Assembly (NCBI GenBank): GCA_963761035.1
Contig: CAVXFH010000002.1
Location: 250,686 to 314,685, forward strand
From: an uncultured Gammaproteobacteria bacterium
Lineage (GTDB): Bacteria > Pseudomonadota > Gammaproteobacteria > DRLM01
Direction: 5' to 3'
Length of the DNA: 64,000 nt
Under the pieces are notes generated by a model. The model was not told the DNA's origin. It worked only from the letters and a program-made list of their open reading frames with translations, and did no database searches. Below, piece by piece: positions 46,148 through 63,486 of this stretch; position 1 is the stretch's first letter; the number at the start of each line of letters is the position of its first letter. Made by a program: the position numbers and the translations under genes.

Positions 46148-47323
46148 ATGGGGCATGCCATGACTGACCATGACTACGCGCTGGGCGAATTAAACAAGAA
46201 CATCACCCTGTCGCAAAAACTGTCGTTCATACACAGCCTCATCGGCAAGCAGATCGCCGCCATTGCCCGTATATCGGTCGCGGTCTACGATCCCAAGTCC
46301 GATATATTGAAGACCTTTCTCCATAGCAGCGGCGGCGACAATCCCCTTTCCAATTACCAGGCGCCCCTCGGCGCCGTGATCTCCTTGCAGGATATCGCCC
46401 GTACCGGCAAACCGCGGGTCATCAACGATCTCGACGCACAATACCAAGGCACCGGCGAACACAGCCATAAGATGGCCAAGCAAGGCTATGGATCGAGCTA
46501 TACCCTCCCCATGTATCTCAACGATACCTTCTTCGGCTTCGTGTTCTTCAACTCTTATGAGAAAAATGCCTTCCAAAGCCCCCTGCTCCCGACCCTGGAC
46601 TTATACGGCCATTTGATATCGCTCACCGTCATCAACGAGTTGGCCGTCATCCATACTATGCTGGCGGCGGTCAGGACCGCCCGCGACATGACCGCATACC
46701 GCGACGTGGAAACCGGCGCCCACCTCGACCGCATGGCGAGTTACGCGCGCCTCATCGCCAAGACACTCGCCGTCAAGTACGATTTTAGCGACGAGTACAT
46801 CGAGCATCTCTTCCTCTTCGCGCCGCTCCACGACATCGGCAAAATCAGTGTGCCGGACAGTATCCTGCACAAGCAAGGCCCGCTCGACGCGACGGAGATC
46901 GCGATTATGAAACGGCATGCTCTAAAAGGACGGGAGATCGTCGATGCCATGCTCAGCGAATTCGGCCTCAATGCTCTGCCCTATATGGAGGTATTACGCA
47001 ACATCATCGAATTCCATCACGAAAAACTGGACGCCAGCGGATATCCGCACGGTCTCAGCGACGACCGTATCCCCATCGAGGCGCGCATCATCGCGGTCGC
47101 CGATATGTTCGATGCCCTCACCAGCCGCCGTCCCTATAAGCAGGCCTGGAGCAATGAGGAAGCCTTTTCTCTGCTGCGCACTCTCTCGGGCACTAAACTG
47201 GACGCGGACTGCATCGATGCGCTGATCGCCCAAACCGACGAAGTGAATCAGATCCAGGCCCGCTTCCGCGGCGATGAAACGGTACCCATCCCGCCCGGAA
47301 TAATGGATATTCCCGATTTTTAG
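46148..47323 (+). CDS. HD-GYP domain cyclic-di-GMP phosphodiesterase-like protein with N-terminal GAF-like sensor region
   Basis: FAPLHDIGKISVPDSIL (HD) and EFHHEKLDASGYPHGL (GYP) motifs. Confidence 0.85.
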   Translation: MGHAMTDHDYALGELNKNITLSQKLSFIHSLIGKQIAAIARISVAVYDPKSDILKTFLHSSGGDNPLSNYQAPLGAVISLQDIARTGKPRVINDLDAQYQGTGEHSHKMAKQGYGSSYTLPMYLNDTFFGFVFFNSYEKNAFQSPLLPTLDLYGHLISLTVINELAVIHTMLAAVRTARDMTAYRDVETGAHLDRMASYARLIAKTLAVKYDFSDEYIEHLFLFAPLHDIGKISVPDSILHKQGPLDATEIAIMKRHALKGREIVDAMLSEFGLNALPYMEVLRNIIEFHHEKLDASGYPHGLSDDRIPIEARIIAVADMFDALTSRRPYKQAWSNEEAFSLLRTLSGTKLDADCIDALIAQTDEVNQIQARFRGDETVPIPPGIMDIPDF

Positions 47324-47334
47324 GTTCTATATTT

Positions 47335-48180
47335 ATGACCGGAAAGTCGATCCTGATAACCGGCTGCTCCAGCGGCATCGGCCTGTGCGCGGCGGAGGGA
47401 CTCAAGCGGCGAGGTTACCGGGTATTCGCCACGGCGCGCAAGCTCCAGGACGTCGCCGCACTGCGAACGAAAGGCTTGGAAGCACTGCGCCTGGATTTGG
47501 CCGACTCCCTGTCCATTCATGAAACCGTAGAGGAGGTACTGCGACGCAGCGGCGGCGAAGTGGCTGCCTTGATCAACAACGGCGGCTACGGCCAAGCCGG
47601 GGCGGTGGAGGACTTGAGCCGCGCCGTTTTGCGCGCGCAATTCGAGACCAATTTGTTCGGTGGCGTCGAACTCACCAATCGCGTCCTCCCGGCGATGCGC
47701 GCCCAAGGCCACGGCCGCATTATCCAGATCAGTTCTATCCTGGGCTTGGCGGCCTTGCCTTACCGCGGCGCCTACAATGCGAGCAAGTTCGCTCTCGAGG
47801 GAATAAGCGATACTTTGCGTCTGGAATTGGCGGGCAGCGGCATCCATGTCAGCCTCATCGAACCCGGCCCCATCAAGAGCCGGTTTCGCGCCAATTCCCT
47901 GGAGATGTTCAAGCGCCATATCGACGCTACTCACAGCGCGCATCGCGACAAATACCAAGGGGTACTGCGTCGCCTTGAAAAGGCCGGACCGGTAACGGCC
48001 TTCGCACTGCCTCCCGAGGCGGTGTTGCAACGCATTATCCATGCCCTGGAGAATCCGCGCCCCAGGATTCGTTATTACGTCACCCTGCCGACGTACGTGT
48101 TCGCCGCCCTGCGCCGCTTCCTTCCCTATTCCCTGCTCGATCGGGCGATGTTGGCGATCAGCCGGAATGAAAATAAATAA
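47335..48180 (+). CDS. Short-chain dehydrogenase/reductase (SDR) family oxidoreductase
   Basis: SILITGCSSGIGLCAA (TGxxxGxG), NNGGYG, catalytic YNASK. Confidence 0.85.
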   Translation: MTGKSILITGCSSGIGLCAAEGLKRRGYRVFATARKLQDVAALRTKGLEALRLDLADSLSIHETVEEVLRRSGGEVAALINNGGYGQAGAVEDLSRAVLRAQFETNLFGGVELTNRVLPAMRAQGHGRIIQISSILGLAALPYRGAYNASKFALEGISDTLRLELAGSGIHVSLIEPGPIKSRFRANSLEMFKRHIDATHSAHRDKYQGVLRRLEKAGPVTAFALPPEAVLQRIIHALENPRPRIRYYVTLPTYVFAALRRFLPYSLLDRAMLAISRNENK

Positions 48181-48339
48181 CGGCGCATTGAAACAGGGCA
48201 AGTCCCTCGTACGGGAATTTTTATTAATCCAGCGGCATTCCGGCACTTTCTTCTTTACTCTTTCTTCTTTCCTCTGTTTAATTTAAATTCGTTACTTACT
48301 CAAGTTATTTATGTGCTTTCGTTCAAGAACGGATTACTA

Positions 48340-51123
48340 ATGGCCGCCAACAGTTTCAAATCGCTCGCCACCCTGCGCCACAAAGGCAAACACTACCGCT
48401 ATCACTCCCTCCCGGCCCTGTTCAAGGGCGGACACAAAACGGTGGCCAGGCTGCCCTTCTCCATCAAGATCCTCCTGGAAAACCTGTTGCGCAATGAAGA
48501 CGGCGTCGCGGTCAAGAAGAGCGATATCGAGGCGGTAATCCGCTGGAAAGCCAAGGCCGAACCGGACAAGGAAATCTTCTTCATGCCGGCGCGGGTGGTG
48601 CTGCAGGATTTCACCGGCGTGCCGGCGGTGGCCGATCTGGCGGCGATGCGCGCCGCACTCAAGCGGCTGGGCGGCAATCCCAAGCGCATCAATCCCTACA
48701 CCCCCGCCGACCTGGTCATCGACCACTCGGTCCAGGTCGACCATTACGGCAGCGCCGGCGCCTTGCACGCTAATTCCGAGCTGGAGATGCAGCGCAACCG
48801 CGAGCGTTATCAATTCTTGAAGTGGGGACAGGGCGCCTTCGACAATTTCCGCGTAGTCCCACCGGACAGCGGCATCGTTCACCAAGTCAATCTCGAATTC
48901 CTGGCGCCGCTGACCATGTCCGTCAAAAAAGGCGGCGAAAATTGGCTGTATCCCGACACGGTGATCGGCACGGATTCCCACACCACCATGATCAACGGGC
49001 TGGGCGTATTGGGCTGGGGCGTGGGCGGCATCGAGGCGGAGGCGGCGTTGCTGGGCCAGCCCAGTTCCATGCTGATCCCCCAGGTAGTCGGCTTCAAGCT
49101 GAGCGGCAAACCGGCGGCGGGCATCACGGCCACCGACATTGTCCTCACCGTCACCCAAGTGCTGCGCAAGCACGGCGTGGTCGGAAAGTTCGTGGAGTTC
49201 TACGGCCCCGGCCTCGCCCATCTCGCCCTGGCCGACCGCGCCACCATCGCCAATATGGCGCCGGAATACGGCGCGACCTGCGGCATCTTTCCGGTGGACG
49301 AAAAGACCACCGCCTATCTGCGCCTCACCGGCCGCGATAAACAGGCGGAATTGGCTGAAGCCTATTATAAGGCCCAGGACCTGTGGTACGAACCCAAACT
49401 AGCCGAACCGACTTACAGCCAGGTGATCAAGTTCGATCTCGGCCAAGTCGAACCCAGCCTGGCCGGACCGTCGCGGCCTCAGGATCGCGCCTCGCTCACG
49501 GGTGTGCGCGCCTCTTTCCGTCAGATGCTGGTCAATCAACTGGAACGACAAGGAAAGACCCTCGACAAGGACCAGCGCGACCGCTGGCTGGCCGACGGCG
49601 GCAGTCTGATGGTGGCGCCGGAGTTGACCGGGCGGCGGGTAGAACAAGGCAACGTCTTCGACGTGTGCATGCCGGTACGCCAACCCGATGGCGTCTCTTA
49701 CCACCTCTGCCACGGCTCGGTGGTGATCGCCGCCATCACCTCCTGCACCAACACCTCCAATCCGGCAGTGCTGATGGCCGCCGGCCTGCTGGCGCGCAAT
49801 GCGGTGTGCCGCGGTTTGCAAGTCAAACCCTGGGTCAAAACCAGCCTCGCCCCCGGCTCGCGGGTAGTGACCGAATACCTCGGTGCCGCCGGTTTGTTGC
49901 CCTATCTCGAGGCGCTGCGCTTCCATGTGGTGGGCTACGGCTGCACCACCTGTATCGGCAATAGCGGACCGCTGCCGCCGCACATCGCCACGGCGGTAAA
50001 GGACGGCGACCTTGCCGTGGCCGCGGTGTTGTCGGGAAATCGCAATTTCGAAGGCCGGGTCAATGCGCAGGTGCGCGCCAATTATCTTGCCTCGCCGCCA
50101 TTGGTGGTGGCCTATGCCCTGGCCGGCAATCTCAACCTCGACCTCACTCGCGACCCTTTGGGCCACGATCCCAGCGGGACGCCGGTGTACCTCAAGGATA
50201 TCTGGCCCGGCCAAGCGGAAATCGAGGCGATCGTCAGTCAATACGTCACCCGCGCCCAATTCCAAAACAACTACAAAAAAGTCTTCGACGGCGACAAGGC
50301 CTGGAACACTCTCAGGTCGCCCAAGGGCGAGCTGTTTAAATGGGAGAAAAATTCTACTTATATAAAAAAGCCGCCGTTCTTCACCGGCATCACGCGCCAA
50401 GCGCCGCCGCTCGACGACATTAGCGGCGCGCGGGTGCTGGCCAGGCTCGGCGATTCTGTGACCACCGACCACATCTCGCCCGCCGGTTCCATCGGCCGCA
50501 CCACGCCGGCAGGACAATATCTCATCGCGCAGGGCGTCGATCCCAAGGACTTCAACTCCTACGGCGCGCGGCGCGGCAATCACGAGGTAATGATCCGCGG
50601 CACCTTTGCCAACATCCGCTTGCGCAATCTGCTTGCGCCCGGTACCGAGGGCGGCGTCACCCGCCATCTACCCGACGGCGAACAGATGTCGATATACGAC
50701 GCGGCGATGAAATACCAGGCGAGCAACACGCCACTAATCGTGATCGCCGGCAAAGAATACGGCACCGGCTCGTCGCGCGATTGGGCGGCCAAGGGCACGC
50801 TGTTGCTCGGCATCCGCGCGGTAATTGTTGAGAGTTTTGAACGTATCCATCGCTCCAACCTGGTGGGCATGGGGGTGTTGCCGCTGCAATTCATGTCGGG
50901 CGAGACCGCGGAGAGCCTGGGGTTGAACGGTGAAGAAACCTACGATATCGCCGGTCTCAGTGCGATCAAGCCGGGCCAGCGCCTGCAGGTTAAGGCCACC
51001 ACGCCTTCGGGCGAGGCAAAGATGTTTACGGCGCAATCGCGCATCGACACCGCAAATGAAGTGGAATACTTCCGCCACGGCGGCATCCTGCCGTACGTGC
51101 TGCGGCAGGCGCTGGAGAAATGA
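48340..51123 (+). CDS. acnA: Aconitate hydratase A
   Basis: MAANSFKSLATLRHKGKHYRYHSLPAL...RLPFSIKILLENLLRNEDG parallels the AcnA N-terminus. Fe-S ligands in ITSCTNTSNP and GCTTCIGNSG. About 927 aa from ATG 48340. Confidence 0.95.
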   Translation: MAANSFKSLATLRHKGKHYRYHSLPALFKGGHKTVARLPFSIKILLENLLRNEDGVAVKKSDIEAVIRWKAKAEPDKEIFFMPARVVLQDFTGVPAVADLAAMRAALKRLGGNPKRINPYTPADLVIDHSVQVDHYGSAGALHANSELEMQRNRERYQFLKWGQGAFDNFRVVPPDSGIVHQVNLEFLAPLTMSVKKGGENWLYPDTVIGTDSHTTMINGLGVLGWGVGGIEAEAALLGQPSSMLIPQVVGFKLSGKPAAGITATDIVLTVTQVLRKHGVVGKFVEFYGPGLAHLALADRATIANMAPEYGATCGIFPVDEKTTAYLRLTGRDKQAELAEAYYKAQDLWYEPKLAEPTYSQVIKFDLGQVEPSLAGPSRPQDRASLTGVRASFRQMLVNQLERQGKTLDKDQRDRWLADGGSLMVAPELTGRRVEQGNVFDVCMPVRQPDGVSYHLCHGSVVIAAITSCTNTSNPAVLMAAGLLARNAVCRGLQVKPWVKTSLAPGSRVVTEYLGAAGLLPYLEALRFHVVGYGCTTCIGNSGPLPPHIATAVKDGDLAVAAVLSGNRNFEGRVNAQVRANYLASPPLVVAYALAGNLNLDLTRDPLGHDPSGTPVYLKDIWPGQAEIEAIVSQYVTRAQFQNNYKKVFDGDKAWNTLRSPKGELFKWEKNSTYIKKPPFFTGITRQAPPLDDISGARVLARLGDSVTTDHISPAGSIGRTTPAGQYLIAQGVDPKDFNSYGARRGNHEVMIRGTFANIRLRNLLAPGTEGGVTRHLPDGEQMSIYDAAMKYQASNTPLIVIAGKEYGTGSSRDWAAKGTLLLGIRAVIVESFERIHRSNLVGMGVLPLQFMSGETAESLGLNGEETYDIAGLSAIKPGQRLQVKATTPSGEAKMFTAQSRIDTANEVEYFRHGGILPYVLRQALEK

Positions 51124-51436: not shown

Positions 51437-53416
51437 TTGAAAAGCGGTTCTTCAGGGAAAAATGTAGTGCAATACCAAGACCCCCTCGAGATAAAGAACA
51501 ACGACGAAACAGCCCATCGCTCCGCTACCGCGGCGGATCTCATCCTGCATTACCTCGAACAAATCGGCGTGGAATACGTCTTCGGGATCCCCGGGGGCGG
51601 TATCGAACCCTTCTATAATGCACTGGCGCGCAGTCAACGCCGCGGCGGACCCCGTGCAATAGTAGCACGCCACGAATCCGGCGCCGCCTTCATGGCGGAC
51701 GGCTATGCGCGCGAATCCGGTAAATTGGGCGTTTGCTGCGCCACTACCGGTCCCGGCGCTACCAACATGATCACCGGCGTGGCCTCGGCGTACATGGATC
51801 ACACTCCCCTGCTGGCGATCACCGCCCAGACATCGCTGAAGACATTTGGTAGAGGGGCCGCTCAAGAGTCAAGCTGTACCGGCATTAATACTGTGGCCAT
51901 GTATCAGCATTGCACCCGTTACAACACGCTGGTATCCCATGTCGAACAACTAGAAAGAAAGCTGATCAGTGCCATTACGACTGCCACGCACCCGCCTTAT
52001 GGCCCTGCACACCTCAGCATCCCCATCGACGTCTTACGGGCGCCGCTTACATTTGATCCATCCTTTAATCTAGGTGCATTGCTAATCCCCTCTCATGCAG
52101 TGGATGGTGAGGCAGTATCTCAGCTTTACCGCACGCTAATGAGCGCTCGTTTCCCTATTTTTATCGTGGGCGCCAATGCTGGTAAAGCAGTCGATTTAAT
52201 TTTGGAATTGGCCATCCTAATCGACGCTCAAGTAGTTACAACTCCAGACGGAAAAGGCTTGGTCAGCTCTTACCATCCCCAGTATCGTGGTATATACGGA
52301 CTTGCGGGCCATACCACTGCGCATGCTCTTGTTAAAAGCAAGTCTGTAGATGCAGTTTTAGCAATAGGATTGAATCTCGATGAACAAGCGACCAATGGTT
52401 GGGAACCCAGCACATTAATCAGCGATAAAACTACATTTATTGACGCTACGCCTCTCTATTTTTCACGATCGCCCGTTGGCCGCCACTACTTCATTGGCAA
52501 CATCAAGGATCTTTTTGAGCGATTGTTATTGCGCTTTCATAATATCCGCAGACAAGATCGTAGCGTAGCTCCTTGGGAACAAACGAAAGGGGCTCAACTA
52601 AGGGATTTCCCTGTCATTCCTTTCGAACGCCGCTTCAATAATCGTCGGCGGGACCGCTCTACTGCCACATTCGAAGGGGTGTCATATCTCCATGCAAAAG
52701 AGCGCCGTTTGGAGATCGATCGCCGCACCACCCAAGTTCCCCCTCCCGTTGTTCGCAGATTTAAACTAAAGGATGAAGACAAATACCATTCAGAAAGCGT
52801 GCCGATCAAACCGCAACGTTTAATGTACGACCTATCCCGTTTATTTCCGCCTACCACGCGATTTTTGGCGGACATCGGCAACAGTTTTTTATGGGTGATC
52901 CATTATTTGCACCCTAATAATCGACGCATTATAGGAAATCGCCTTTCTACTACAGGTACTATCCATTTGGGAATGGGCTTTGCTTCCATGAGCTGGGCCA
53001 TTGGCGCTGCGGCAGGCACAGCCCTGGCCGCACGAGGCATGCCGGTCGTGTGCATAACCGGTGACGGTTCTATGTTAATGAGCGGTCAGGAACTTACAAC
53101 TGCCGTGCAGGAGAAGCTCACAGTGATCTTCGTCGTCCTAAATGATGCTGCCTATGGTACTGTCAAACATGGTCAACAGATGGCGGGTGCGGAATTAATT
53201 GGCTTTGACCTACCTCGCGTCGATTTCGTGGCATACGCGAAATCCATGGGGGCATCGGCTTATTTGATACAGTCTCCTCAAGACATGATCGACTTGAATA
53301 TTTCCGCAATGTGCAAGCGCGCCGGCCCGACGGTGCTTGACGTTCATATCGACCCCGACGAAATCCCCCCTCTAGAGGAGCGAATAAATATGTTGAAATC
53401 GGACATGTCTGCATAA
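51437..53416 (+). CDS. Thiamine-pyrophosphate-dependent enzyme, acetolactate-synthase/benzoylformate-decarboxylase superfamily, with a large internal insertion
   Basis: N-terminal Pyr domain (AADLILHYLEQIGVEYVFGIPGGGIEPFYNAL...ARHESGAAFMADGYAR...CCATTGPGATNMITGVASAYMDHTPLLAIT). C-terminal TPP-binding motif (ITGDGSMLMSGQELTTAV...VVLNDAAYG). Start uncertain (TTG 51437 or GTG 51467). Confidence 0.8.
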   Translation: MKSGSSGKNVVQYQDPLEIKNNDETAHRSATAADLILHYLEQIGVEYVFGIPGGGIEPFYNALARSQRRGGPRAIVARHESGAAFMADGYARESGKLGVCCATTGPGATNMITGVASAYMDHTPLLAITAQTSLKTFGRGAAQESSCTGINTVAMYQHCTRYNTLVSHVEQLERKLISAITTATHPPYGPAHLSIPIDVLRAPLTFDPSFNLGALLIPSHAVDGEAVSQLYRTLMSARFPIFIVGANAGKAVDLILELAILIDAQVVTTPDGKGLVSSYHPQYRGIYGLAGHTTAHALVKSKSVDAVLAIGLNLDEQATNGWEPSTLISDKTTFIDATPLYFSRSPVGRHYFIGNIKDLFERLLLRFHNIRRQDRSVAPWEQTKGAQLRDFPVIPFERRFNNRRRDRSTATFEGVSYLHAKERRLEIDRRTTQVPPPVVRRFKLKDEDKYHSESVPIKPQRLMYDLSRLFPPTTRFLADIGNSFLWVIHYLHPNNRRIIGNRLSTTGTIHLGMGFASMSWAIGAAAGTALAARGMPVVCITGDGSMLMSGQELTTAVQEKLTVIFVVLNDAAYGTVKHGQQMAGAELIGFDLPRVDFVAYAKSMGASAYLIQSPQDMIDLNISAMCKRAGPTVLDVHIDPDEIPPLEERINMLKSDMSA

Positions 53417-53447
53417 CCTATAATATCAAACCAACACCAATTGGTCG

Positions 53448-53473
53448 ATGTATGATGAAATAGGCTCATACAT
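53448..53473 (+). promoter_or_regulatory. Perfect 8-bp stem hairpin ATGTATGA (53448-53455) / TCATACAT (53466-53473) followed by TTT, between the TPP-enzyme and receptor genes
   Basis: Read directly. Could be a partial terminator or attenuator. Confidence 0.4.
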
Positions 53474-53565
53474 TTAGGGTGCAAATTGTCAAACATTTAG
53501 GCCTTTAATTAAAAAACTAACGGACGATAACCTCGTATCATAGGGAAATAAAAGGATCGAGGTAC

Positions 53566-55728
53566 ATGCAAACGAATAAATATGTATCTACTATAGGGTT
53601 ATTTTCTATCATAAGTACATTAACATCTGTCTCAGTTGCTGGAACTAATTCCGAAGAACAGGACTTTGCACTCACTTTTGGTGATGCTCAGATGATCAGC
53701 ATCGCAACCGGCACACAGCAGCCAATATCACGGGCGCCAGCGGTAGCCGATGTAGTCACCTCCGACGACATTAAGGCGATGGGCGCGACCAATCTAGATC
53801 AGGTTCTGGAAACAATTCCAGGTATACACGTATCAGTTTCCTCTTATCGATTTAATCCGATTTATTCAATAAGAGGTATCGGCTCGGATATCGATCCTCA
53901 AGTTCTTGTCCTTGTTAATGGTATTCCCTTAACGCAATTATTTCAGGGCGATCGGGGAATTCGCTCGTCGTTACCTGTTGCCAATATCGCTCGAGTTGAA
54001 GTCATTCGTGGCCCTGGTTCGGCCGTGTACGGTGCTGACGCCTTTGCAGGGGTCATCAATGTCATCACCAAAAAGGCGGATGATATCAATGGAACTGAGG
54101 CCGGTTTGAGAGCTGGTTCCTTCGACAGCCAGGACGGCTGGATACTTCATGGCACGTCTTGGAACGATTATGACATTGCATTTAGCCTGGAATGGTCTCA
54201 CCAAGGAAATGACAATAACCGAATTATTGATGCTGACCAACAAACGACATTTGATCAACTCATTAATATTCCAAATTCCTTGCCGCCAGCTAGCTTGGCC
54301 CCTGGCCCCGTCAATACAAGGCAGCGCCGTATCGACACAACGCTGGACATCCAGCACAATAATTGGAAATTTCACTTATGGAATTGGCGACAAAATGGTG
54401 TGGGAGTTGGGCCGGGGTTGGCTCTGGCGTTAGACCCGACAGGGTCGGCCACTACTAATAACTATCTATCAGATATTACGTATCATAATCCTCATATATC
54501 AGAAAACTGGGATCTCACCTCCCAAATTAGTTATATGGATATCGACATCCACAGTGCGCAAACTCTTTTCCCGTCCGGAACGGTACTGCCTATCGGTAGT
54601 GATGGTAACATCAATTTTTTGTCACCTGCTGGTTTAGTGCTCTTCCCAGACGGGATGATCGGTGATCCGGGCGGACATGAAGACCATTATCGTTTCTCTG
54701 TGGATGCTTTTTATAACGGTTATACGAATCATCGCCTGCGCGTTGGCAGTGGAGTTTATTACGCGAAGCTACGTGTAAACGAGACTAAAAATTATGGCCC
54801 TGGTGTAATTGACGGCACTGTTCCCGTGATTGATGGGACCCTCACGGACGTGACTGGTACATCTAATATTTACATCGAACCAAAAAATCGAACTAATTAT
54901 TTTGCCTTTTTGCAGGATGAATGGACATTCGCTCGTGATTGGAGTACTACTCTTGGTCTTCGTTATGACCACTACTCAGATTTTGGCAATACACTTAATC
55001 CAAGGGCTGCCCTGGTTTGGCAAACGAAATATAATCTGACGACCAAATTACTCTATGGACGCGCATTCCGTGCTCCTTCGTTTGCGGAACTTTATGCCAT
55101 CAATAATCCGATCCGACTCGGTAACGCAAATCTGCGCCCTGAAACCATTGATACCTTGGAGATGGCCTTTGATTATCAACCAACTTTTGATATTAATACC
55201 AAATTGAATTTCTTTACCTACAAAATTCGTAATCAAATATCTCTCGTTTCTCTCACGGGAGGATCTACCTTTACCTCTGATAATACCGGGCAACAAGATG
55301 GAGACGGCCTGGAATGGGAAACCACTTGGAAATTATCCCGTGCATTGGATTTACAAGGCAATTACTCCTATCAGAATTCGTCTAGCAAGCAAAATAATAA
55401 TACCTCCGCCAAAGCGCCTAAGAATCATATATACGCGTCGCTAGACTGGAAATTTTTGGACAATTGGCGTTTGAATACTCAAGCCAACTGGATAAGCCAG
55501 CGTGATCGAGCGCCCATCGATACACGTCCCCCGCTTCAAGGCTATACAACTGTTGACATGACATTGCGTAAGTTTATCAATAATTGGGAAGCCACTATCT
55601 CTGTTCAGAATATTTTTAATCAACATCCCTTTGAGCCGAGTCCTTATGCTCCACCCGCCGCCCCTGTTCCCAACGACTTTCCGCTATCGGGCAGGAGCGG
55701 CTATGCAGAACTCCGATACCACATGTAA
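53566..55728 (+). CDS. TonB-dependent outer-membrane receptor
   Basis: Signal peptide, plug region (DVVTSDDIKAMGATNLDQVLETIPGIHVS ... VEVIRGPGSAVYGADAFAGVINVITK), long beta-barrel with Tyr/Asn-rich strands. 720 aa. Confidence 0.85.
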   Translation: MQTNKYVSTIGLFSIISTLTSVSVAGTNSEEQDFALTFGDAQMISIATGTQQPISRAPAVADVVTSDDIKAMGATNLDQVLETIPGIHVSVSSYRFNPIYSIRGIGSDIDPQVLVLVNGIPLTQLFQGDRGIRSSLPVANIARVEVIRGPGSAVYGADAFAGVINVITKKADDINGTEAGLRAGSFDSQDGWILHGTSWNDYDIAFSLEWSHQGNDNNRIIDADQQTTFDQLINIPNSLPPASLAPGPVNTRQRRIDTTLDIQHNNWKFHLWNWRQNGVGVGPGLALALDPTGSATTNNYLSDITYHNPHISENWDLTSQISYMDIDIHSAQTLFPSGTVLPIGSDGNINFLSPAGLVLFPDGMIGDPGGHEDHYRFSVDAFYNGYTNHRLRVGSGVYYAKLRVNETKNYGPGVIDGTVPVIDGTLTDVTGTSNIYIEPKNRTNYFAFLQDEWTFARDWSTTLGLRYDHYSDFGNTLNPRAALVWQTKYNLTTKLLYGRAFRAPSFAELYAINNPIRLGNANLRPETIDTLEMAFDYQPTFDINTKLNFFTYKIRNQISLVSLTGGSTFTSDNTGQQDGDGLEWETTWKLSRALDLQGNYSYQNSSSKQNNNTSAKAPKNHIYASLDWKFLDNWRLNTQANWISQRDRAPIDTRPPLQGYTTVDMTLRKFINNWEATISVQNIFNQHPFEPSPYAPPAAPVPNDFPLSGRSGYAELRYHM

Positions 55729-55748
55729 TGACTCTCTCGTAATTCTCG

Positions 55749-56567
55749 ATGCCCAAGAAAGACAATATCAACGACCCTATCCTTCGCAATGAAAAGTTTG
55801 CTGAAAAGATACCTACGCGCATTTGGTGTGAAGAGCCGAGCCCAGATAATCCCTACATAGCTCAGCGCAGTCTCTGCCATGGCTATGATTTCTTTGAATT
55901 GATGCAATCCTGCACCTTTATTGAGGTCTTCTACCTGCTATTTCGAGGAGAGCTTCCTACTAAAGATCAGGCGCGTTTACTCGAAACATTGATGATAGCT
56001 CTTATCAATCCTGGGCCTAGACATCCTGCAACGCGTGCCGCTATGTCCAGTGCCGTCAGTAAAGCCCATATCAGCCATATTCTCCCGATATCCCTCTCGT
56101 GCCTTAGCGGAGATCATTTGGGTGCAAGTGAAGTAGAAAGTGCCATGCGCTTTATCAAACGATCGGTAACAACCGAACCTGCAATGCTGTTACCTTCACT
56201 TATCGAGCAGAATCCCAAGCCATCCGAAGGAGACTGGCATATCGCCCCAGGTTTTGGCAGTCGCTTCGGCGGTATCGACGTGCTTCCGCAAAAAATAGCC
56301 AATATACTTTGTGCAATGGCTGGTGCTGACGCAGCGCTTGAGTGGGGTATGAAATTCGTCAATGAAATCGCTATCCATCATTCAGGTTGGCTCAACACAA
56401 GCATAGCTGCCGCGGTATTTCTTGACCTAGGCTTTCACCCGCGAAACGGGCCCGGTCTATTTCAGATTCTCTCGTCGCCGGGCCTATTAGCTCATGGATT
56501 GGAATTTGCCAATAAACATATTACAGCCATGCCCTTCGTAGATAATGAGCATTATGTTATCGAGTAA
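55749..56567 (+). CDS. Citrate-synthase / citryl-CoA-lyase-fold protein, short form (subunit A)
   Basis: HGYDFFELMQSCTFIEVFYLLFRGELPTKDQARLLETLM resembles the citrate synthase pattern RGY.I.EL....F.EV.YLLL.GELPT..Q. LSGDHLGASEVESAMRFI resembles the catalytic-His segment L.GPLHGGANE.V..ML. Assignment is from remembered motifs only. Confidence 0.55.
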   Translation: MPKKDNINDPILRNEKFAEKIPTRIWCEEPSPDNPYIAQRSLCHGYDFFELMQSCTFIEVFYLLFRGELPTKDQARLLETLMIALINPGPRHPATRAAMSSAVSKAHISHILPISLSCLSGDHLGASEVESAMRFIKRSVTTEPAMLLPSLIEQNPKPSEGDWHIAPGFGSRFGGIDVLPQKIANILCAMAGADAALEWGMKFVNEIAIHHSGWLNTSIAAAVFLDLGFHPRNGPGLFQILSSPGLLAHGLEFANKHITAMPFVDNEHYVIE

Positions 56568-57384
56568 TGATGATATGAAGGATACAGAATTCTGGGATAA
56601 AAGACGCAACATCATCCGCTCCCGCAAAGGAGGCGCTATTCTTGGCGGCGGACGCGTGTTTAGCCATGGCTACTCAATACTAGAAGACTTGCTCGGTAAA
56701 GCGAGCTATTTTCAAGTTCTAGTGTTAAACGTCACCGGACGCCTCCCGGAAGATCAGCTATCCAAATGGATAGAATCCACTTTTATCTGCTTAAGCTGGC
56801 CTGACCCCCGCATTTGGTGTAATCAAATAGGGGCTCTTGGAGGTTCCCTACGCAGTTCCCCAGTAGCCGCAATCACTGCAGGCGCTCTTGCATCCGATTC
56901 AATGCTATATGGACCAGGGACTGCAATAGGTGCGACTAAATTTATTACTACCGCGCTTCAAAAAAGAAAGAATGGCGCCTCCGTTGAGGCAATAATTCAC
57001 CCTTATCGCAGGAACCCAGAAAGCATACCAATCATTCCAGGCTATGCTAGGCCACTAGCCTATGGCGACGAAAGAGTTTCCGCAATGGAAAAGATTACAA
57101 AAAACCTTGGATTTGATATCGGTGAACATTCTGCACTCGCTTTTGATATTCAATCTTATTTGTTTGATCATTTCGGAGAAAGCTTAAATCTGGCTGGATA
57201 CATAGTTGCTTTTCTATCTGATCGAGGGATTTTACCCGAAGAAATATACCGTATTTATTCATTATGCACTGTTAACGGAATTCATGCATGCTACGCAGAG
57301 GCTTATGACAACCCACCTGAATCATTCCTTCCACTAAAATGTGAAGATATCGAATATAAAGGCAAATCATATCGTCCGCTATAG
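56545..57384 (+). CDS. Citrate-synthase / citryl-CoA-lyase-fold protein, short form (subunit B, catalytic His apparently absent)
   Basis: SHGYSILEDLLGKASYFQVLVLNVTGRLPEDQLSKWIE parallels subunit A and the citrate synthase pattern. The equivalent of GPLHGGA reads YGPGTAIGA. Overlaps the upstream gene by 23 nt (start uncertain). Confidence 0.5.
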   Translation: MSIMLSSNDDMKDTEFWDKRRNIIRSRKGGAILGGGRVFSHGYSILEDLLGKASYFQVLVLNVTGRLPEDQLSKWIESTFICLSWPDPRIWCNQIGALGGSLRSSPVAAITAGALASDSMLYGPGTAIGATKFITTALQKRKNGASVEAIIHPYRRNPESIPIIPGYARPLAYGDERVSAMEKITKNLGFDIGEHSALAFDIQSYLFDHFGESLNLAGYIVAFLSDRGILPEEIYRIYSLCTVNGIHACYAEAYDNPPESFLPLKCEDIEYKGKSYRPL

Positions 57385-57769: not shown

Positions 57770-60700
57770 ATGAACGATGCTAGTGGCGATGGCATGAGGC
57801 AGTCATTTTCGGCTCAGCTCGCCAAGCTAAGTCTGCCACGCTTAGCGCGCGGGGTTGCCCGACCGCGGCTATTCACAGTGTTGGATAAGGCGCGGAAACG
57901 TCAGCGACGTGGATTGCCTCACCAGCCGAGGCGCCGGCAAAACTACCTTGGTGGCGACTTGGCTCCTGGAGCGCGGATCACCCTATTTGTGGTATCAACT
58001 GGACAAGGACGATGCCGATCCCGCGACATTTTTCTATTATCTTGGCATCGCCGCCAAACACGCCTCACAGGATCCGTCTCTTTTTCTCCCGCTGTTGACT
58101 CCAGAATATCTACCAGACATACCTGGTTTCGTCCGGCGCTACTTCCGTAAACTTTTTGCCTTGCTACCTTCCGGCATGGTATTGGTCCTGGACAACTATC
58201 AGGAGGTGGATGACGCTGCTATCTTTTCCGATATCTTACGCAGCGCTATCGGTGAAATACCCGAAGGAAGCCATCTCCTAGTGATCAGCCGCACTGATCC
58301 GCCCCCCACATTGGCGCGCCACCGGGCAACGAGCACCCTGATCCTCCTCGACTGGGGCATCCTGCGCCTGACCCTGGATGAGACCCAGTCCATCGTTACC
58401 CATGACTTGCCCCTCAACGACGAGAGTATCAGAACATTGCACGAACGAGCCGATGGCTGGCCCGCCGCCGTGACCCTGATGCTAGAACACATCAAGAGGA
58501 ATGGCGCGGAGAATTGGGACATTGGATCCGGCCCATTGGAGACGGTGTTTCACTTCTTTGCCAACGAGTTCTTCAATGCCCTGCCAGAGACCACACAGGA
58601 CTTCCTGCTAACGACGGCGCTGCTTTCGCACATTACCCCAACTCTAGCCGAACAGCTGAGCGGTAACCCCGATGCCGGATCGATATTGACTGACCTTCAC
58701 CGCCGCCATTTCTTTACCCATCTCCGTGTCCTGGAAGAGACTAGTTATCAATACCATACGTTGTTCCGCGAGTTCCTGCTGGTCAGGGCGGCGGAGACAT
58801 ACACACGAGACCAATACCTTGCACTGACAAGCCGGGCAGGACGCTTGCTTAACGAACACCACCGCAGCGAAGAGGCGGTAATCCTGTACCTCCGTGCCCA
58901 GGATTGGGAGACGGCCATCCCCTTGTTGCTCAGCCAGGCTCCCCTCCTCCTAGCCCAAGGCCGCGCCCAGATTTTAGCGGGATGGTTGCAGCAGATACCG
59001 GAAGCATTAATAGTGGCTACGCCGTGGCTCCTATATTGGAAGGGCATGAGCCAACAATTTATTGACCCATTTGCTGCGCGACGGAACCTTGGAGCTGGCT
59101 AATGCCGGATTTGTAAGCTCGAATGATGTCATTGGTCAGATGCTGGTCGCCTCCGCAATAATCGACATTGCTTATATCCTTAGGCAGGGTTTTACCTCCG
59201 CTTTACCATGGATAGAGACGCTACAGAACTGTTACAACACGCATTCTGAAATTCAGTCTTCGACAATAGAGTCGCGCATTCTAACAAGCCTTGTTGCGCT
59301 CTTAACTTTTACAGCTCCACAAGAACCACGGCTGTCCGATTACGCCAATCGTCTATCATTTCTTTTATATAGTGATATAGATGTTAATCAGAAAGTGTTC
59401 ACGGCTGGCCACCTGCTTTATTACACGTCATTGTTGCTGGCGATAGAGAAACCAGCGAGAGAATCATGGCGCATATTATGCCGCTTATTAGCTCTCCGGC
59501 ACTAAGCGTTGTCAATCAGATCTTTTGGCGGCATATGTGTGTGCTACCTTTTATTCTAGCTGGACAGGTTGACGCTGCGTACGAAGTTACTCGTCCCGTT
59601 TTAAATTTAGTAAGAGAAAACAACCTACGCTTTTTAGAGTTTATTGCCAATGTTTATGAGATGTTCGTCACTTATCACATTAACAATAGGATTTAGCCCA
59701 ATCGATAATTATGCACTTGCCGGCGATTTTGATAAACTTCCCACCAGCCTATGGATACGGCCTGGCTTCAGTTGACTGAATGTTGCTATGCCTAGATGAA
59801 TAATGATTGGGCTATGGTTTTAAGCCATGCGATAGCGGCTCGTAACGACTTTTCAAATTTTTCTTCGCCAACATTTGAAATGGAAATTACTTGCCTTATT
59901 GCTAACGCACGTTGTGAAAGCGCTAAGCCCGAAGAAGCCTTAGATCTACTCTGACTACTTAAACAACATAATTACAGCAAATCCCCAAGGTTATGCTTTC
60001 AAATTTTACTAATTGAAGCCTATGCCTATCTCGTTCAAGGAGATAGGGAGAATTGTCATTTTTCCTCACGTAAAGCATTAAGTATTGGTTGAATTCATCG
60101 TTACTTTGGGAATCTTTTTTGGTTCTCACGATTGATTACACGCCTCTGTGCCGAGGCGCTGCAGACTGGGATTGAGGTAGAATATGTTCGGCAATTGATC
60201 CGCAAGCGCAAGATCCTGCCCGAAGAATCCACCATCGAGCACTGGCCATGGCCGGTGAGGATTTATACCCTGGGACAATTCAAGGTAATGCTCAACGACC
60301 AGGAGATTCCGGAACTAAAGGCCCAGCGCAAACCGTTCGCTCTGCTCCAGTCACTGATCGTCTTGGGTGGCGCGGAAGTGAAGATCGATAGGATCACCGA
60401 AATAGTATGGCCGGACGCCGAAGGAGACGCGGCCGTCTCGGCCTTTACCACTACCGTCTCGCGGCTGCGCAAGCTGATCGGCGAGCATGCGATAATTGTA
60501 AAAGGCGGGCGGATAAGCCTCAATGAACGCAACTGTTGGGTGGATGTTCGAGCGCTGGAACGCCAACTGGACCTAACGGATAACCCTCAAGGCAACAGCG
60601 CCCGGGACTGCGCCGAGAAACTTCTTTCCCTCTACCGCGGTGCATTTTTGAGTGATGAGGATGGGGAATGGATCCAACGGCGGCGCCGCCGGCTTCGGGA

Positions 60701-60857
60701 GAAATTTTCGCGCCGTTTCACGCAATGTGTAAACGCCTTGCTGACAGCAAAAATGAATGAAACAGCTGCACGCCTTCTGGAAAGGGCCATGGATACGGAT
60801 GCCGACATCGGGCATTTACTCAAGCAGTCCTCCCCCGTCTTAACTCCCGCATTATGA
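57770..60857 (+). pseudogene. Degraded large STAND ATPase / TPR / winged-helix + BTAD (SARP-type) transcriptional regulator
   Basis: Pieces in different frames. N-terminus LAKLSLPRLARGVARPRLFTVLD (57770 frame). P-loop GAGKTTLVATWLLE and MalT-like NTPase body (57855-59102). TPR-like pieces (59062-59505, 59466-59696, and 59697-60131 with in-frame stops at 59694, 59706, 59793, 59952 and 60090). C-terminus WPWPVRIYTLGQFKV...VSRLRKLIG...LYRGAFLSDEDGEW (60132-60857) is typical of OmpR-like wHTH + BTAD. Confidence 0.75.
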
Positions 60858-60921: not shown

Positions 60922-62508
60922 TTATTGGGCTCCGGCCGTATTCACCTCCTTAATAGGCAGCGGAAAATGAACTGTGAATGTCGAGCCATTATCAGTTGCG
61001 CTTTGCACCCGGATATCACCTCCCATCAGCCGGCAAAGCCGTTGGGTGATACTTAACCCCAGCCCGGTACCGCCATATTCCCGCGTAGTGCTCATATCCG
61101 CTTGGCGAAATTCTTCGAAAATATGCGCCTGCTGCTGCTCTGTCATGCCGATACCGGTATCGGAGACTACGATGGTCAAATCCTGATCCGTCTTCATTAT
61201 ACGTAGGCTAATTTGGCCGCCCGAGGTGAATTTAGCAGCGTTGCCCAATAGATTCACTATGATTTGCCGAAGCTTTGCATTATCTATCATTAGCGAGCCG
61301 TTATCGCCCTGAATGTCGACGGTGAGATTATTATCATTTTTCCCTGCTAATATTTGGATAGTTCCCGCAATTTCGTTTATCAGTTCGTTAAGATCTGTTG
61401 GTTCAATCAATACATCCATATGGCCGGCTTCAATCTTTGCCAGATCCAGAATGCTATTGATCATGGTCAAGAGATTATTGGCCGCCTTCTGTACGCGTCG
61501 CAAATCGACCACGATGTCCTCATTGCCCTCAGCCTCCAATTCCTCTATAGCAATTTCCGTATAGCCGATGATGGCGTTAAGAGGGGTGCGCAGTTCATGG
61601 CTCATATTGGCCAGAAATTCGGATTTATGCCGGCTTGCCATCACGGCCTGGTCGCGCGCCTCCACCAATTCCCGGGTTCGCAAGAAAACCTCGCTCTCCA
61701 GATTCTCGTTTTGATCACGGAGACGCTTGTCTCGCTCATCCAAGGTCGCCATCATACTGTTGAATACGCGGGCGATAGCCTTGACCTCCGATGGTCCCGT
61801 CACGGGAGCGCGTACATCACTGGCGCCCTCACCCGCCTGCTGCATTATTCCTGATAAATTATGCAGCGGTGACGTGATTCGGCTCACCAATACTCTCAAT
61901 ATAAATATCAGTACAATAGCGAACATCGTTGCAACAGCGACATTATTCAGAAAGATTTGGATTTGCGCTTCATGCAAGGCACGCTTAGTTAAAGAAACCT
62001 GAACATACCCAAGCCATTCCTGAGCCGAGTCCATCGGTTTCCGCGGGAACTCGATATCAATGTCACCCTGCTTTGGTGAGAACACAGGCGCTACAAAGTC
62101 AAGTGACTCACTCGTTTCGTTGGCAAAATACGCCGCATTATGCTTGACCGCATCCTGCCGCAACAAATGCGGCAGCCAATTCACACGTTTGCCCATCTCC
62201 AACAGGTTTGTATCCTCGGCATCCTGGATGGCGACATATTCCACGTTAGGAAACGCCAAAATGGCGCGCGCTGAATCTGTCGCGTTTTCCTTCGATGCGT
62301 ACACCAGCGCCAAGACACTTTGTGCGGCAAAATTATCCGCTATCTTCTTTCCTTGTTCAATCAGCTGCTCTTTCAGTCGTTTACTCTGCAACCATGCGGT
62401 CGTAATGGAAGAGCCAAGCGCCAAGCATACGACGCCCAAGGCCACCGTCCACAAAAGTTGGCGGCGAAAGCTGCTAGCCTTCGGAACGATGTGCGTTGTC
62501 TGATCCAT
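60922..62508 (-). CDS. Sensor histidine kinase (two TM segments, HAMP, HisKA, HATPase_c; no receiver domain)
   Basis: H-box [17 protein letters not shown]-box [10 protein letters not shown]-boxes DTGIGM and [13 protein letters not shown]. Periplasmic loop between [23 protein letters not shown] and [19 protein letters not shown]. Confidence 0.9.
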
Positions 62509-62520
62509 GGTTATTTTGCA

Positions 62521-63486
62521 TCAATGCTCCGGAAACACCAGGGCAAATTTTCTTAGCAAGTCGTTGGAAATGGACAAACCAATATGTTCCGCCGTGCGCA
62601 TGTTGATCGCTGCTTGCAGAGCCTGCAGAAGTACAATGTTATTCGCGATATTTCGACTATCAGTATTCAGATAGCTCTCTGCCAATATCGCGATATCTTT
62701 CCCCATTTTCCTATTATCCGGAAAAAGGGCGAAAAGCGCACCGCGTCTGACATAAGTGGGATTGCTGGAAAATACCAATATGTCTTGATCCCACGCCCCC
62801 CTCAATAATAACGGGAGAATAACTTTATCATCCACCGCAACCGGATCCGGTAGCAACCATATGGCATCTTCGCCCGATCGGCTTTTATTAATAATGTCGC
62901 GATAGATAAGGGCTGAATTCTTAATATCGTCAGACTCGTGGGTAACAAGGTGAAAATTTCTTTTTGCCGCCGATATACGGGCGGCTTGTACAAGCCATGC
63001 GCTGCTCTGCGGGCTATACACAACGTGCACCATTTTGACTGTCGGCGCAATTTGCTCAAGGTAGGAAAAGAAAACGTCGGGATCCGCGGCAAGACTGATT
63101 CCTGCAATACCACGATCTTTCTTATCCGGAGTCAGCAGTAATGCTCCGGCTACAATTGGTATTTTTCCCTTCCATTGCTGCGCGGCGGCCAACCCCGTTC
63201 TTCCAAGTGCGATGATGACCGCTATATCTTCCCGATCTATGGTCGCTTTCAGTTGATTAAGATCGACATCTTCCCCCACGGTGAATAATTCTACCGGCTC
63301 CTTGATTTGCTCCTGAATACCCTCGACAATGGAGGTCACCACATTGCGATATGGCTCTTGAAGATCCGGATAAAATACCGCGATAGCCGGCGACTGTTCT
63401 GCTTGCGTGATGGGAGAAAATACCAAAGTCAGAACGAAGACCAGGGCGGCAATGTCGGGTACTGGAAAATGGCGGGGCGTTGTCAC
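62521..63486 (-). CDS. Periplasmic solute-binding-protein-like protein (ABC_sub_bind type), co-oriented 12 nt upstream of the kinase
   Basis: Signal/anchor sequence IAALVFVLTLVFSPITQA, then IAVFYPDLQEPYRNVV...VIIALGRTGLAAA..., as in orphan ABC substrate-binding proteins often paired with sensor kinases. Confidence 0.6.
   Translation of the reverse strand: MTTPRHFPVPDIAALVFVLTLVFSPITQAEQSPAIAVFYPDLQEPYRNVVTSIVEGIQEQIKEPVELFTVGEDVDLNQLKATIDREDIAVIIALGRTGLAAAQQWKGKIPIVAGALLLTPDKKDRGIAGISLAADPDVFFSYLEQIAPTVKMVHVVYSPQSSAWLVQAARISAAKRNFHLVTHESDDIKNSALIYRDIINKSRSGEDAIWLLPDPVAVDDKVILPLLLRGAWDQDILVFSSNPTYVRRGALFALFPDNRKMGKDIAILAESYLNTDSRNIANNIVLLQALQAAINMRTAEHIGLSISNDLLRKFALVFPEH

Follow-up and report, generated by a model that had tools for sequence, protein, structure and literature searches.

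A conserved set of a ThDP enzyme, two citryl-CoA-lyase-fold paralogs and a TonB-dependent receptor is linked to a periplasmic sensor and c-di-GMP enzymes in several phyla

Four genes on the plus strand of a 64,000-nt stretch of DNA from an uncultured gammaproteobacterium (assembly GCA_963761035.1, contig CAVXFH010000002.1, positions 250,686–314,685; the whole stretch is referred to as the window) encode a thiamine diphosphate (ThDP)-dependent enzyme of the acetolactate synthase (ALS) superfamily, a TonB-dependent outer-membrane receptor and two distant paralogs related in fold to citrate synthase (CS), named CS1 and CS2 below. We found that this cassette (51437–57384), with its cytoplasmic proteins and outer-membrane receptor, forms one half of a module of six to seven genes; a periplasmic substrate-binding protein (SBP) and a sensor histidine kinase make up the second half. 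A prediction made earlier from the sequence alone (the original prediction) had taken the quartet for the whole unit; the module, however, also takes in the SBP and the kinase and, in other genomes, a response regulator (RR) with PAS, GGDEF and EAL domains. As a working model, which we regard as possible at somewhat less than an even chance, a complex of the ThDP enzyme with CS1 and CS2 would make a small molecule that the receptor returns to the periplasm, where it would be sensed to set cyclic di-GMP (c-di-GMP).

The gene set is retained across phyla

The open reading frames (ORFs) of the cassette lie at 51437–53416, 53566–55728, 55749–56567 and 56545–57384, all on the plus strand with spacings of 149, 20 and −23 nt, in agreement with the layout, coordinates and gaps of the original prediction. 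Its domain calls (TPP enzyme, TonB receptor, pair of CS-fold proteins) were likewise recovered with Pfam and NCBIfam and, for the CS pair, with AlphaFold2 models and Foldseek. We fetched 80 species-representative genome loci with a CS1 profile and searched them with the window proteins. Of these, 41 species-level loci extend 8 kb or more to either side of CS1 (the full-flank subset); there, CS1 is accompanied by a receptor (counted at 250 bits or more against the window receptor) in 39, by CS2 in 39, by the ThDP enzyme in 35 and by all three in 34 cases. Receptor orthologs scoring 450–950 bits adjoin CS1-CS2 in 73 of the 80 loci. At least six arrangements of the four genes, differing in order and orientation, were seen; the succession CS1 then CS2 is invariant, and the stop and start codons of this pair overlap or abut. 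The hosts are Gallionellaceae (Sideroxydans, Sideroxyarcus, Gallionella), Chromatiales, Thiohalomonadales, Cellvibrio, Desulfobulbaceae including the cable bacterium Electrothrix, Desulfuromonadaceae and Nitrospirota, and these groups span Beta- and Gammaproteobacteria, Desulfobacterota and Nitrospirota. Retention of the set across phyla despite repeated rearrangement is strong evidence that the four genes are functionally linked. Co-occurrence in other genomes had been named as a check by the original prediction: the four genes adjoin in dozens of species, which excludes the outcome that they are never neighbours.

An exhaustive profile search of 1.84 billion representatives showed the family to be small, with 153 clusters at E ≤ 1e-30 and 952 at E ≤ 1e-3. 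CS1 and CS2 are fused in two proteins (P0298 and P0380), and the locus of P0298 holds the full module with ThDP enzyme, CS1-CS2 fusion, receptor, short-chain dehydrogenase/reductase (SDR) and kinase. Another fusion (P0416, 885 aa; locus L088, 8001–11542) carries CS1 at the C-terminus of the ThDP enzyme, with CS2 as the next gene. The two kinds of fusion suggest that the three cytoplasmic proteins probably act together, and CS1 and CS2 probably form a heteromer. PnuC-like, SET-domain and glycolytic genes neighbour P0416.

Some loci carry accessory genes: up to 24 have an SDR, and those of Electrothrix encode an O-methyltransferase together with a protein containing a condensation domain. Clustering of all ORFs of the 80 loci (10 kb) yielded no other widely conserved family and no inner-membrane importer, exporter or synthetase of the NRPS-independent siderophore (NIS) or non-ribosomal peptide synthetase (NRPS) type. 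Close homologs of CS1 were not found in 72,556 plasmids, which contained just canonical citryl-CoA lyases (CCLs) of 26–30% identity to it, and full-text literature searches did not turn up any account of the gene set. The proposal that the cassette is a candidate undescribed system has thus gained ground: the set is conserved, and no description of it was found in the curated family models, source annotations or literature searched.

The sensor half and its c-di-GMP output

In the window the second half of the module lies 3.5 kb downstream of the cassette, on the minus strand. According to Pfam and the translation, the sensor histidine kinase (60922–62508) consists of a transmembrane segment, a periplasmic sCache_4 domain, a second transmembrane segment and HAMP, HisKA and HATPase_c domains, with no receiver. 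The SBP (62521–63486) belongs to PF04392 (ABC_sub_bind) and shows a signal peptide in its translation. The cassette has an ortholog of the kinase as its direct neighbour in L001 (824 bits), in L013 and in many other loci. L001 is the closest relative of the window locus (CS1 76% identical); there, kinase and SBP directly follow CS2, and a gene for an RR-PAS-GGDEF-EAL protein precedes the ThDP gene. The SBP adjoins the sensor in 42 of the 80 loci. No permease or ATPase partner of the ATP-binding cassette (ABC) type was found for it, and the genes conserved alongside the set in these loci include no transporter. The SBP is presumed to be a co-sensor of the kinase.

RR-PAS-GGDEF-EAL proteins occur in 36 of the 80 loci and have intact GGDEF, RxxD and EAL motifs. 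In Gallionellaceae the input part (aa 13–272 of the window kinase) is joined straight to PAS-GGDEF-EAL, and one locus encodes a 1535-aa hybrid kinase with fused GGDEF-EAL. The Cellvibrio kinase carries a YfiR-like periplasmic domain in place of SBP and sCache, and an RR-PAS-GGDEF-EAL protein is present there too. Such a conserved input with swapped outputs indicates that signalling converges on c-di-GMP.

Exported binding proteins that come without ABC genes and are encoded beside a kinase with a periplasmic domain are familiar from TorT-TorS, which senses trimethylamine N-oxide, and LuxP-LuxQ, which senses autoinducer 2. Judged by its genes, the SBP/kinase pair conforms to this arrangement, and the kinase core gives partial NCBIfam matches to both TorS and LuxQ. 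In contrast to these systems, the module has a PF04392 binding protein, an sCache_4 sensor and a dedicated TonB-dependent receptor, and its output is c-di-GMP turnover instead of, or besides, transcription.

A probably active ThDP enzyme with unusual partners

The gene of the ThDP enzyme (51437–53416; 659 aa as an ORF) more likely starts at GTG 51467, which gives a protein of 649 aa, has AGGGA 8 nt upstream and aligns with the start in the 76%-identical L001 relative. All three Pfam domains of the enzyme are matched (TPP_enzyme_N, M and C; PF02776, PF00205 and PF02775). The cofactor-activating Glu is kept in 61 of 62 family members; the GDG motif is present in all 62, followed by Asn in all 62 and by Asp in 46 or Asn in 16. 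Conservation of the Glu and of the GDG...N(D/N) motif suggests that the enzyme is catalytically intact and probably active. The nearest solved structures are BbmA (8x3x, 292 bits) and CsmA (8x3z), ahead of acetolactate synthases, and the N-terminal half aligns with BbmA over 317 residues (217 bits).

The three-domain layout, the cofactor Glu and the GDG motif are shared with ALS-superfamily carboligases (AlsS/IlvB, the ScyA-related acyloin synthases, BbmA, CsmA). Compared with the large subunit of acetohydroxyacid synthase, the enzyme agrees in its three domains and cofactor motifs but not in equivalog-level similarity, as it stays under every NCBIfam equivalog cut-off (best 277 bits versus 509), nor in having a partner small subunit; an ACT-type small regulatory subunit was not found among its conserved neighbours. 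In contrast to the carboligases it is partnered with, and once fused to, CCL-fold proteins, and its interdomain linker is variable and, in the window lineage, Arg-rich.

This linker between the middle and C-terminal domains (aa 362–455, window positions 52520–52801) is long and contains the Arg-rich repeats FERRFNNRRRDR and KERRLEIDRR; repeats like these were otherwise seen only in the closest relatives L001 and L013. Its length varies between 38 and 95 aa in the family; outside the window lineage it measures 38–65 aa and is unrelated in sequence. The repeats resemble RRxxxR, which is the c-di-GMP-binding motif of PilZ domains; a tie between the linker and the c-di-GMP output of the module would be speculative.

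CS1 and CS2: a citryl-CoA-lyase fold with a remodelled active site

CS1 (55749–56567, 272 aa) and CS2 (56545–57384, 279 aa as an ORF) are encoded on the plus strand. For CS2, ATG 56575 is the likelier start; the protein then has 269 aa, matching the database copy, and the 23-nt overlap becomes a 7-nt gap. Neither protein qualifies by score for the curated families (PF00285; NCBIfam PRK06224 CCL families). CS1 matches Pfam Citrate_synt with 31 bits against a cut-off of 27, over 80 residues only, and reaches 74 bits against an NCBIfam cut-off of 212; CS2 has no Pfam match and scores 48.6 against 245 bits with the NCBIfam citryl-CoA-lyase model. The AlphaFold2 models have a predicted local distance difference test score of 86 for CS1 and 77 for CS2. 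The best Foldseek match of both is 6hxp, the Hydrogenobacter thermophilus citryl-CoA lyase Ccl, with template modelling (TM) scores of 0.73/0.77 for CS1 and 0.63 for CS2; the CCL modules of ATP-citrate lyase (ACLY) come next for both, and for CS2 the matches to 6hxp and to these modules span TM scores of 0.63–0.71. By these models, both proteins have the large-domain (CCL) fold of citrate synthase. They share it, along with a length of about 270 aa and the lack of a small domain, with Ccl, with the CCL module of ACLY and more distantly with citrate synthase. The two paralogs align with each other in hhalign at 17% identity (probability 95.8).

In order to check the active site, 87 CS1 and 75 CS2 family members were aligned to 6hxp (residues are given in pig CS numbering). 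The equivalent of the general base Asp375 (Asp1026 in human ACLY) is absent from 87/87 CS1 and 75/75 CS2 sequences. His320 is likewise lost from all 87 CS1 proteins, where nearly all have Ser, Thr or Asn (mostly Ser) and none has His, and is replaced by Arg in all 75 CS2 proteins. The position of His274 is His in 71 of 87 CS1 sequences and never His in CS2; all three canonical catalytic residues are missing from CS2, and the equivalents of His238 and Arg401 are replaced too. Arg329 is kept in 73 of 87 CS1 proteins. As a control, the Azoarcus plasmid CCL, which is 29% identical to CS1, retains IHGG, GFGHR and NID. Since the catalytic Asp and the second His are absent, these alignments indicate that neither protein is a canonical citrate synthase or lyase. 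Each retains dozens of invariant polar residues, which argues that the two proteins do something specific. Conserved positions include R91, H92, H123, D162, R172, H249 and E252 of CS1 and D77, R79, R159, D165–R167 and H185 of CS2. Of the citrate-synthase-like motifs in the original prediction, the fold therefore stands (TM 0.73 and 0.63), but the catalytic motifs are absent from both proteins, and its description of the products as enzymes that make or break C-C bonds applies to the ThDP enzyme only.

Measured against Ccl, CS1 has kept the equivalents of His274 and Arg329, whereas the general-base Asp and the second His are gone from every CS1 and CS2. Unlike CCLs, CS1 and CS2 form an obligate pair of paralogs far under the NCBIfam CCL cut-offs, and they are accompanied in genomes by a ThDP enzyme and a TonB-dependent receptor instead of a citryl-CoA synthetase. 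In databases the CS1 family (1260 matches) and the CS2 family (984 matches) are named just 'citrate synthase' or 'hypothetical protein'; a CS2 ortholog is present in Thiovibrio sp. JS02.

CS-fold proteins were also seen in other settings. In L018, L025, L026 (1801–10831) and L029, a lone CS1 homolog (about 56% identical), without CS2, receptor or ThDP gene, directly follows genes for FadE, thiolase, FadB and acyl-CoA synthetase; its place in these β-oxidation operons hints that CS1-type proteins handle CoA thioesters. On the Azoarcus sp. KH32C plasmid NC_020548.1 (L090, 4709–8568), a canonical CCL homolog lies between a CoA transferase and another ThDP-binding protein, which is 24% identical to the window enzyme; shikimate and dehydroquinate genes adjoin. 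CCL-fold and ThDP proteins thus also pair in an unrelated, probably catabolic cluster.

The TonB-dependent receptor

The receptor (53566–55728, plus strand, 720 aa) shows a signal sequence at the N-terminus of its translation and matches the Pfam models Plug (89 bits) and TonB_dep_Rec_b-barrel (136 bits); signal peptide, plug and a 22-strand-type barrel identify it as a TonB-dependent receptor. It stays under the cut-off of every named NCBIfam receptor family. The best of these weak matches include siderophore and haem receptor subfamilies, the siderophore subfamily scoring 148 against 223.5 bits, and sequence matches in the PDB are confined to the plug region. The protein ends in ...ELRYHM (55717–55728), not in the terminal aromatic residue that is usual in such receptors; in the family, only 30 of 83 members end in Phe.

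A specific outer-membrane receptor beside cytoplasmic genes of biosynthetic type, with perception tied to regulation, is also found in Fec/Fpv-type signalling and siderophore loci. We rejected a TonB-dependent transducer of the Fec/Fpv type: in contrast to such systems, the receptor gave no Pfam match to the N-terminal signalling (STN) domain, and neither the window cassette nor its conserved neighbours include a pair of extracytoplasmic function (ECF) sigma and anti-sigma genes. From siderophore and metallophore loci the module differs in lacking an NIS or NRPS synthetase, an inner-membrane importer and a Fur-box signal.

Base composition and surroundings of the cassette

The host is a gammaproteobacterium; its aspartyl-tRNA synthetase (AspRS) is about 75% identical to that of Ectothiorhodospira, Thioalkalivibrio and Thiohalobacter, and only metagenome proteins reach 85–92% identity. 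The GC content of the cassette is 47.3%, versus 55.7% in window positions 1–51000, in line with the low GC content noted by the original prediction. The deficit amounts to 8 points (−8), whereas the median of 75 other loci is about 0. The window lineage alone thus shows it, which probably reflects horizontal acquisition of the module in this lineage, as had been proposed.

The 149-nt intergenic region 5′ of the receptor gene (53417–53565, plus strand) contains the direct repeat ACATTTAGG at 53470–53478 and 53493–53501, 23 nt apart, which may be an operator. In L001 the corresponding gap is just 24 nt and the repeat is not conserved. Rfam at the gathering threshold found no family near the cassette or in this gap; its matches in the window are five tRNA genes only, clustered at 1790–2524 on the minus strand. 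Promoter and terminator scans did not exceed shuffled expectation.

Between the two halves of the module lies a decayed gene for a MalT-like STAND NTPase (57770 to about 60100, plus strand; NCBIfam MalT 147 bits), spread over at least three frames in a six-frame reading, followed by a small ORF of winged helix-turn-helix–BTAD (SARP) type (60132–60857, plus strand; Pfam BTAD). The decayed SARP/BTAD-type regulator of the original prediction is therefore real. Its insertion sequence (IS) remnant, however, was not found: 57.4–64 kb contains no transposase-like ORF, no terminal inverted repeat and no match to plasmid or IS DNA. Relative to the near-identical metagenome contigs L006 and L007, the MalT-like copy in the window has a net +1 frameshift; one of these contigs has a predicted product of 787 aa (one gene caller). 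A patch of about 115 nt in this gene (57814–57930), which shifts the reading frame, is set apart from the two otherwise identical contigs by some 25 substitutions and by indels of −1 and +2, and looks like gene conversion or recombination rather than random decay. The MalT-like gene occurs in only 1 of the 80 loci, and the insertion is absent from L001 and also from L013, where, again, kinase and SBP directly follow CS2. The MalT/BTAD insertion is lineage-specific and splits the module; it is not a conserved member.

Upstream of the cassette, two genes were considered as further members and rejected. The SDR at 47335–48180 is 31% identical to the module-associated SDR and belongs to the high-GC backbone. 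The aconitase at 48313–51123 adjoins the module in 2 of the 80 species loci and lies outside the low-GC tract, so that its presence is probably incidental; an AcnA-type aconitase stands directly beside the module only here and in Electrothrix (L002, L003, L009 and L024), and this adjacency is probably a coincidence. A protein with GAF and HD_5 (HD-GYP-type) domains, which may be a c-di-GMP phosphodiesterase, is encoded at 46148–47323, 4 kb upstream, in the high-GC backbone.

Discussion

In the model that we favour, the ThDP enzyme, in complex with the CS1/CS2 heteromer, would be a carboligase or decarboxylase; the heteromer would bind a substrate (possibly a CoA thioester or carboxylate) or regulate the ThDP enzyme. 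Together with tailoring enzymes, namely the SDR, O-methyltransferase and condensation-domain protein that some lineages add, this complex would produce a small polar compound for release from the cell. Uptake through the dedicated TonB-dependent receptor would then bring the compound, possibly loaded with metal, back across the outer membrane. In the periplasm the SBP would capture it and, by analogy with TorT-TorS or LuxP-LuxQ, hand it to the sCache_4 sensor; there the compound would be sensed and not carried further. The sensor would finally set c-di-GMP through an RR-PAS-GGDEF-EAL protein, a kind not seen among the window ORFs scanned. Accessory genes of the tailoring type and the lack of a conserved inner-membrane importer favour biosynthesis over catabolism.

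Several points weigh against this model. Its product, exporter and ligand are wholly inferred, and we found no characterised precedent for a cell that retrieves its own signal into the periplasm by TonB-dependent uptake and then moves it no further. The catalytic residues of their fold are missing from CS1 and CS2, whose part in any synthesis could be purely regulatory. The ThDP-CS1 fusion comes from a single metagenome contig. The halves of the set are separable: the locus of this fusion has no TonB-dependent receptor within 8 kb, and the ThDP gene is missing from 6 of the 41 full-flank loci. Furthermore, no response-regulator GGDEF-EAL protein was present among the window ORFs scanned, a subset of those of at least 200 aa.

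Other readings account for part of the same data. The compound could be exogenous: the receptor would import a scarce molecule, SBP and sensor would report it and adjust c-di-GMP, and the ThDP enzyme with CS1 and CS2 would convert or detoxify it after passage through a general inner-membrane carrier. Receptor and sensor are indeed the most constant partners of CS1-CS2, lone CS1 homologs close β-oxidation operons, a catabolic context, in four loci, and canonical CCL-family proteins stand next to a CoA transferase and a ThDP protein in catabolic clusters. However, the 80 loci show no conserved inner-membrane transporter within 10 kb, the SBP has no permease or ATPase partner, the accessory genes are of the tailoring type (O-methyltransferase, condensation domain, SDR) and the residues of a lyase are missing from CS1 and CS2, so that we consider this reading rather unlikely. 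The absence of a conserved inner-membrane transporter likewise weakens the import and cleavage of a scarce organic acid, one of two functions envisaged by the original prediction. Alternatively, CS1 and CS2 could be pseudoenzymes that sense a cytoplasmic metabolite (CoA, an acyl-CoA or a carboxylate, for example) and control the ThDP enzyme, much as small subunits regulate acetolactate synthase, with receptor and sensor as a separate, co-regulated input. Loss of the catalytic residues while many other positions are invariant, the CS1 domain fused to the C-terminus of the ThDP enzyme and the lack of an acetolactate synthase small subunit in the cluster would all fit. We think this decidedly unlikely, since it leaves unexplained why the receptor is present in 39 of 41 loci, more often than the ThDP enzyme, and since CS1-CS2-receptor sets occur without any ThDP gene.

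A classical carboxylate siderophore or metallophore, with the CS-fold and ThDP proteins building a citrate-type chelator and the receptor retrieving the metal complex for nutrition, appears improbable to us. Biosynthetic genes next to a cognate TonB-dependent receptor are the standard layout of a siderophore locus, and the siderophore and haem subfamilies among the weak receptor matches point the same way. On the other hand, the siderophore subfamily cut-off is clearly missed (148 versus 223.5 bits), the catalytic Asp and second His are gone from all CS1 and CS2 proteins, and the set conserved in the 80 loci, which does not qualify as an NIS-type carboxylate siderophore locus, contains no IucA/IucC-type synthetase, no inner-membrane importer of the ABC or major facilitator superfamily type, no reductase and no exporter. 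Fur-box-like sites are not enriched upstream: a consensus scan gave 88 weak matches in 1.49 Mb, not concentrated upstream of module genes, although this is a weak test over such diverse taxa. Instead of transport genes, a sensor and c-di-GMP enzymes are the constant companions of the set, and many hosts are Fe(II) oxidisers that live in iron-rich gradients. With respect to the other function envisaged by the original prediction, the synthesis and re-uptake of a small carboxylate metallophore, synthesis and re-uptake of a small molecule thus still give the best reading, whereas an iron-binding carboxylate siderophore is weakened by the lack of an NIS synthetase, Fur enrichment and an importer. 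Finally, low GC content and a decayed regulator within the region might suggest that unrelated genes came to lie together by chance in an island of foreign DNA. The neighbourhood data refute this, as orthologs adjoin in dozens of species of several phyla despite rearrangement and some are fused; we give it virtually no weight.

Each component of the module belongs to a known superfamily, and its logic resembles that of siderophore or autoinducer loci with a cognate receptor and sensor. What appears to be undescribed is the combination: an ALS-like ThDP enzyme with rewired CCL-fold paralogs, a TonB-dependent receptor with an SBP/sCache_4 sensor, and an output in c-di-GMP. More tentatively, and with considerable doubt, we propose a new extracellular small-molecule circuit in which the product of a hitherto unknown complex of ThDP carboligase and rewired CS1/CS2 heteromer, after energised TonB-dependent uptake instead of diffusion and after sensing by the SBP/sCache_4 pair, feeds a c-di-GMP decision (attachment, motility, filament behaviour) in chemolithotrophs of redox gradients; that iron oxidisers, sulfur oxidisers and cable bacteria are the hosts of such a circuit is put forward with the same reserve.

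If the model holds, it would give a first function to a branch of the citrate synthase/citryl-CoA lyase family that is without the Claisen catalytic residues and yet highly conserved, and a new type of partner to acetolactate-synthase-like ThDP enzymes. A metallophore as the product would still mean new chemistry, since no known siderophore synthetase family is represented. A TonB-dependent receptor would here feed a periplasmic sensor that controls c-di-GMP, and not serve nutrition. The module would then represent a widespread and hitherto undescribed device for communication or environmental sensing in the iron and sulfur cyclers of sediment and groundwater, among them Gallionellaceae, sulfur-oxidising Gammaproteobacteria, cable bacteria and Desulfuromonadales.

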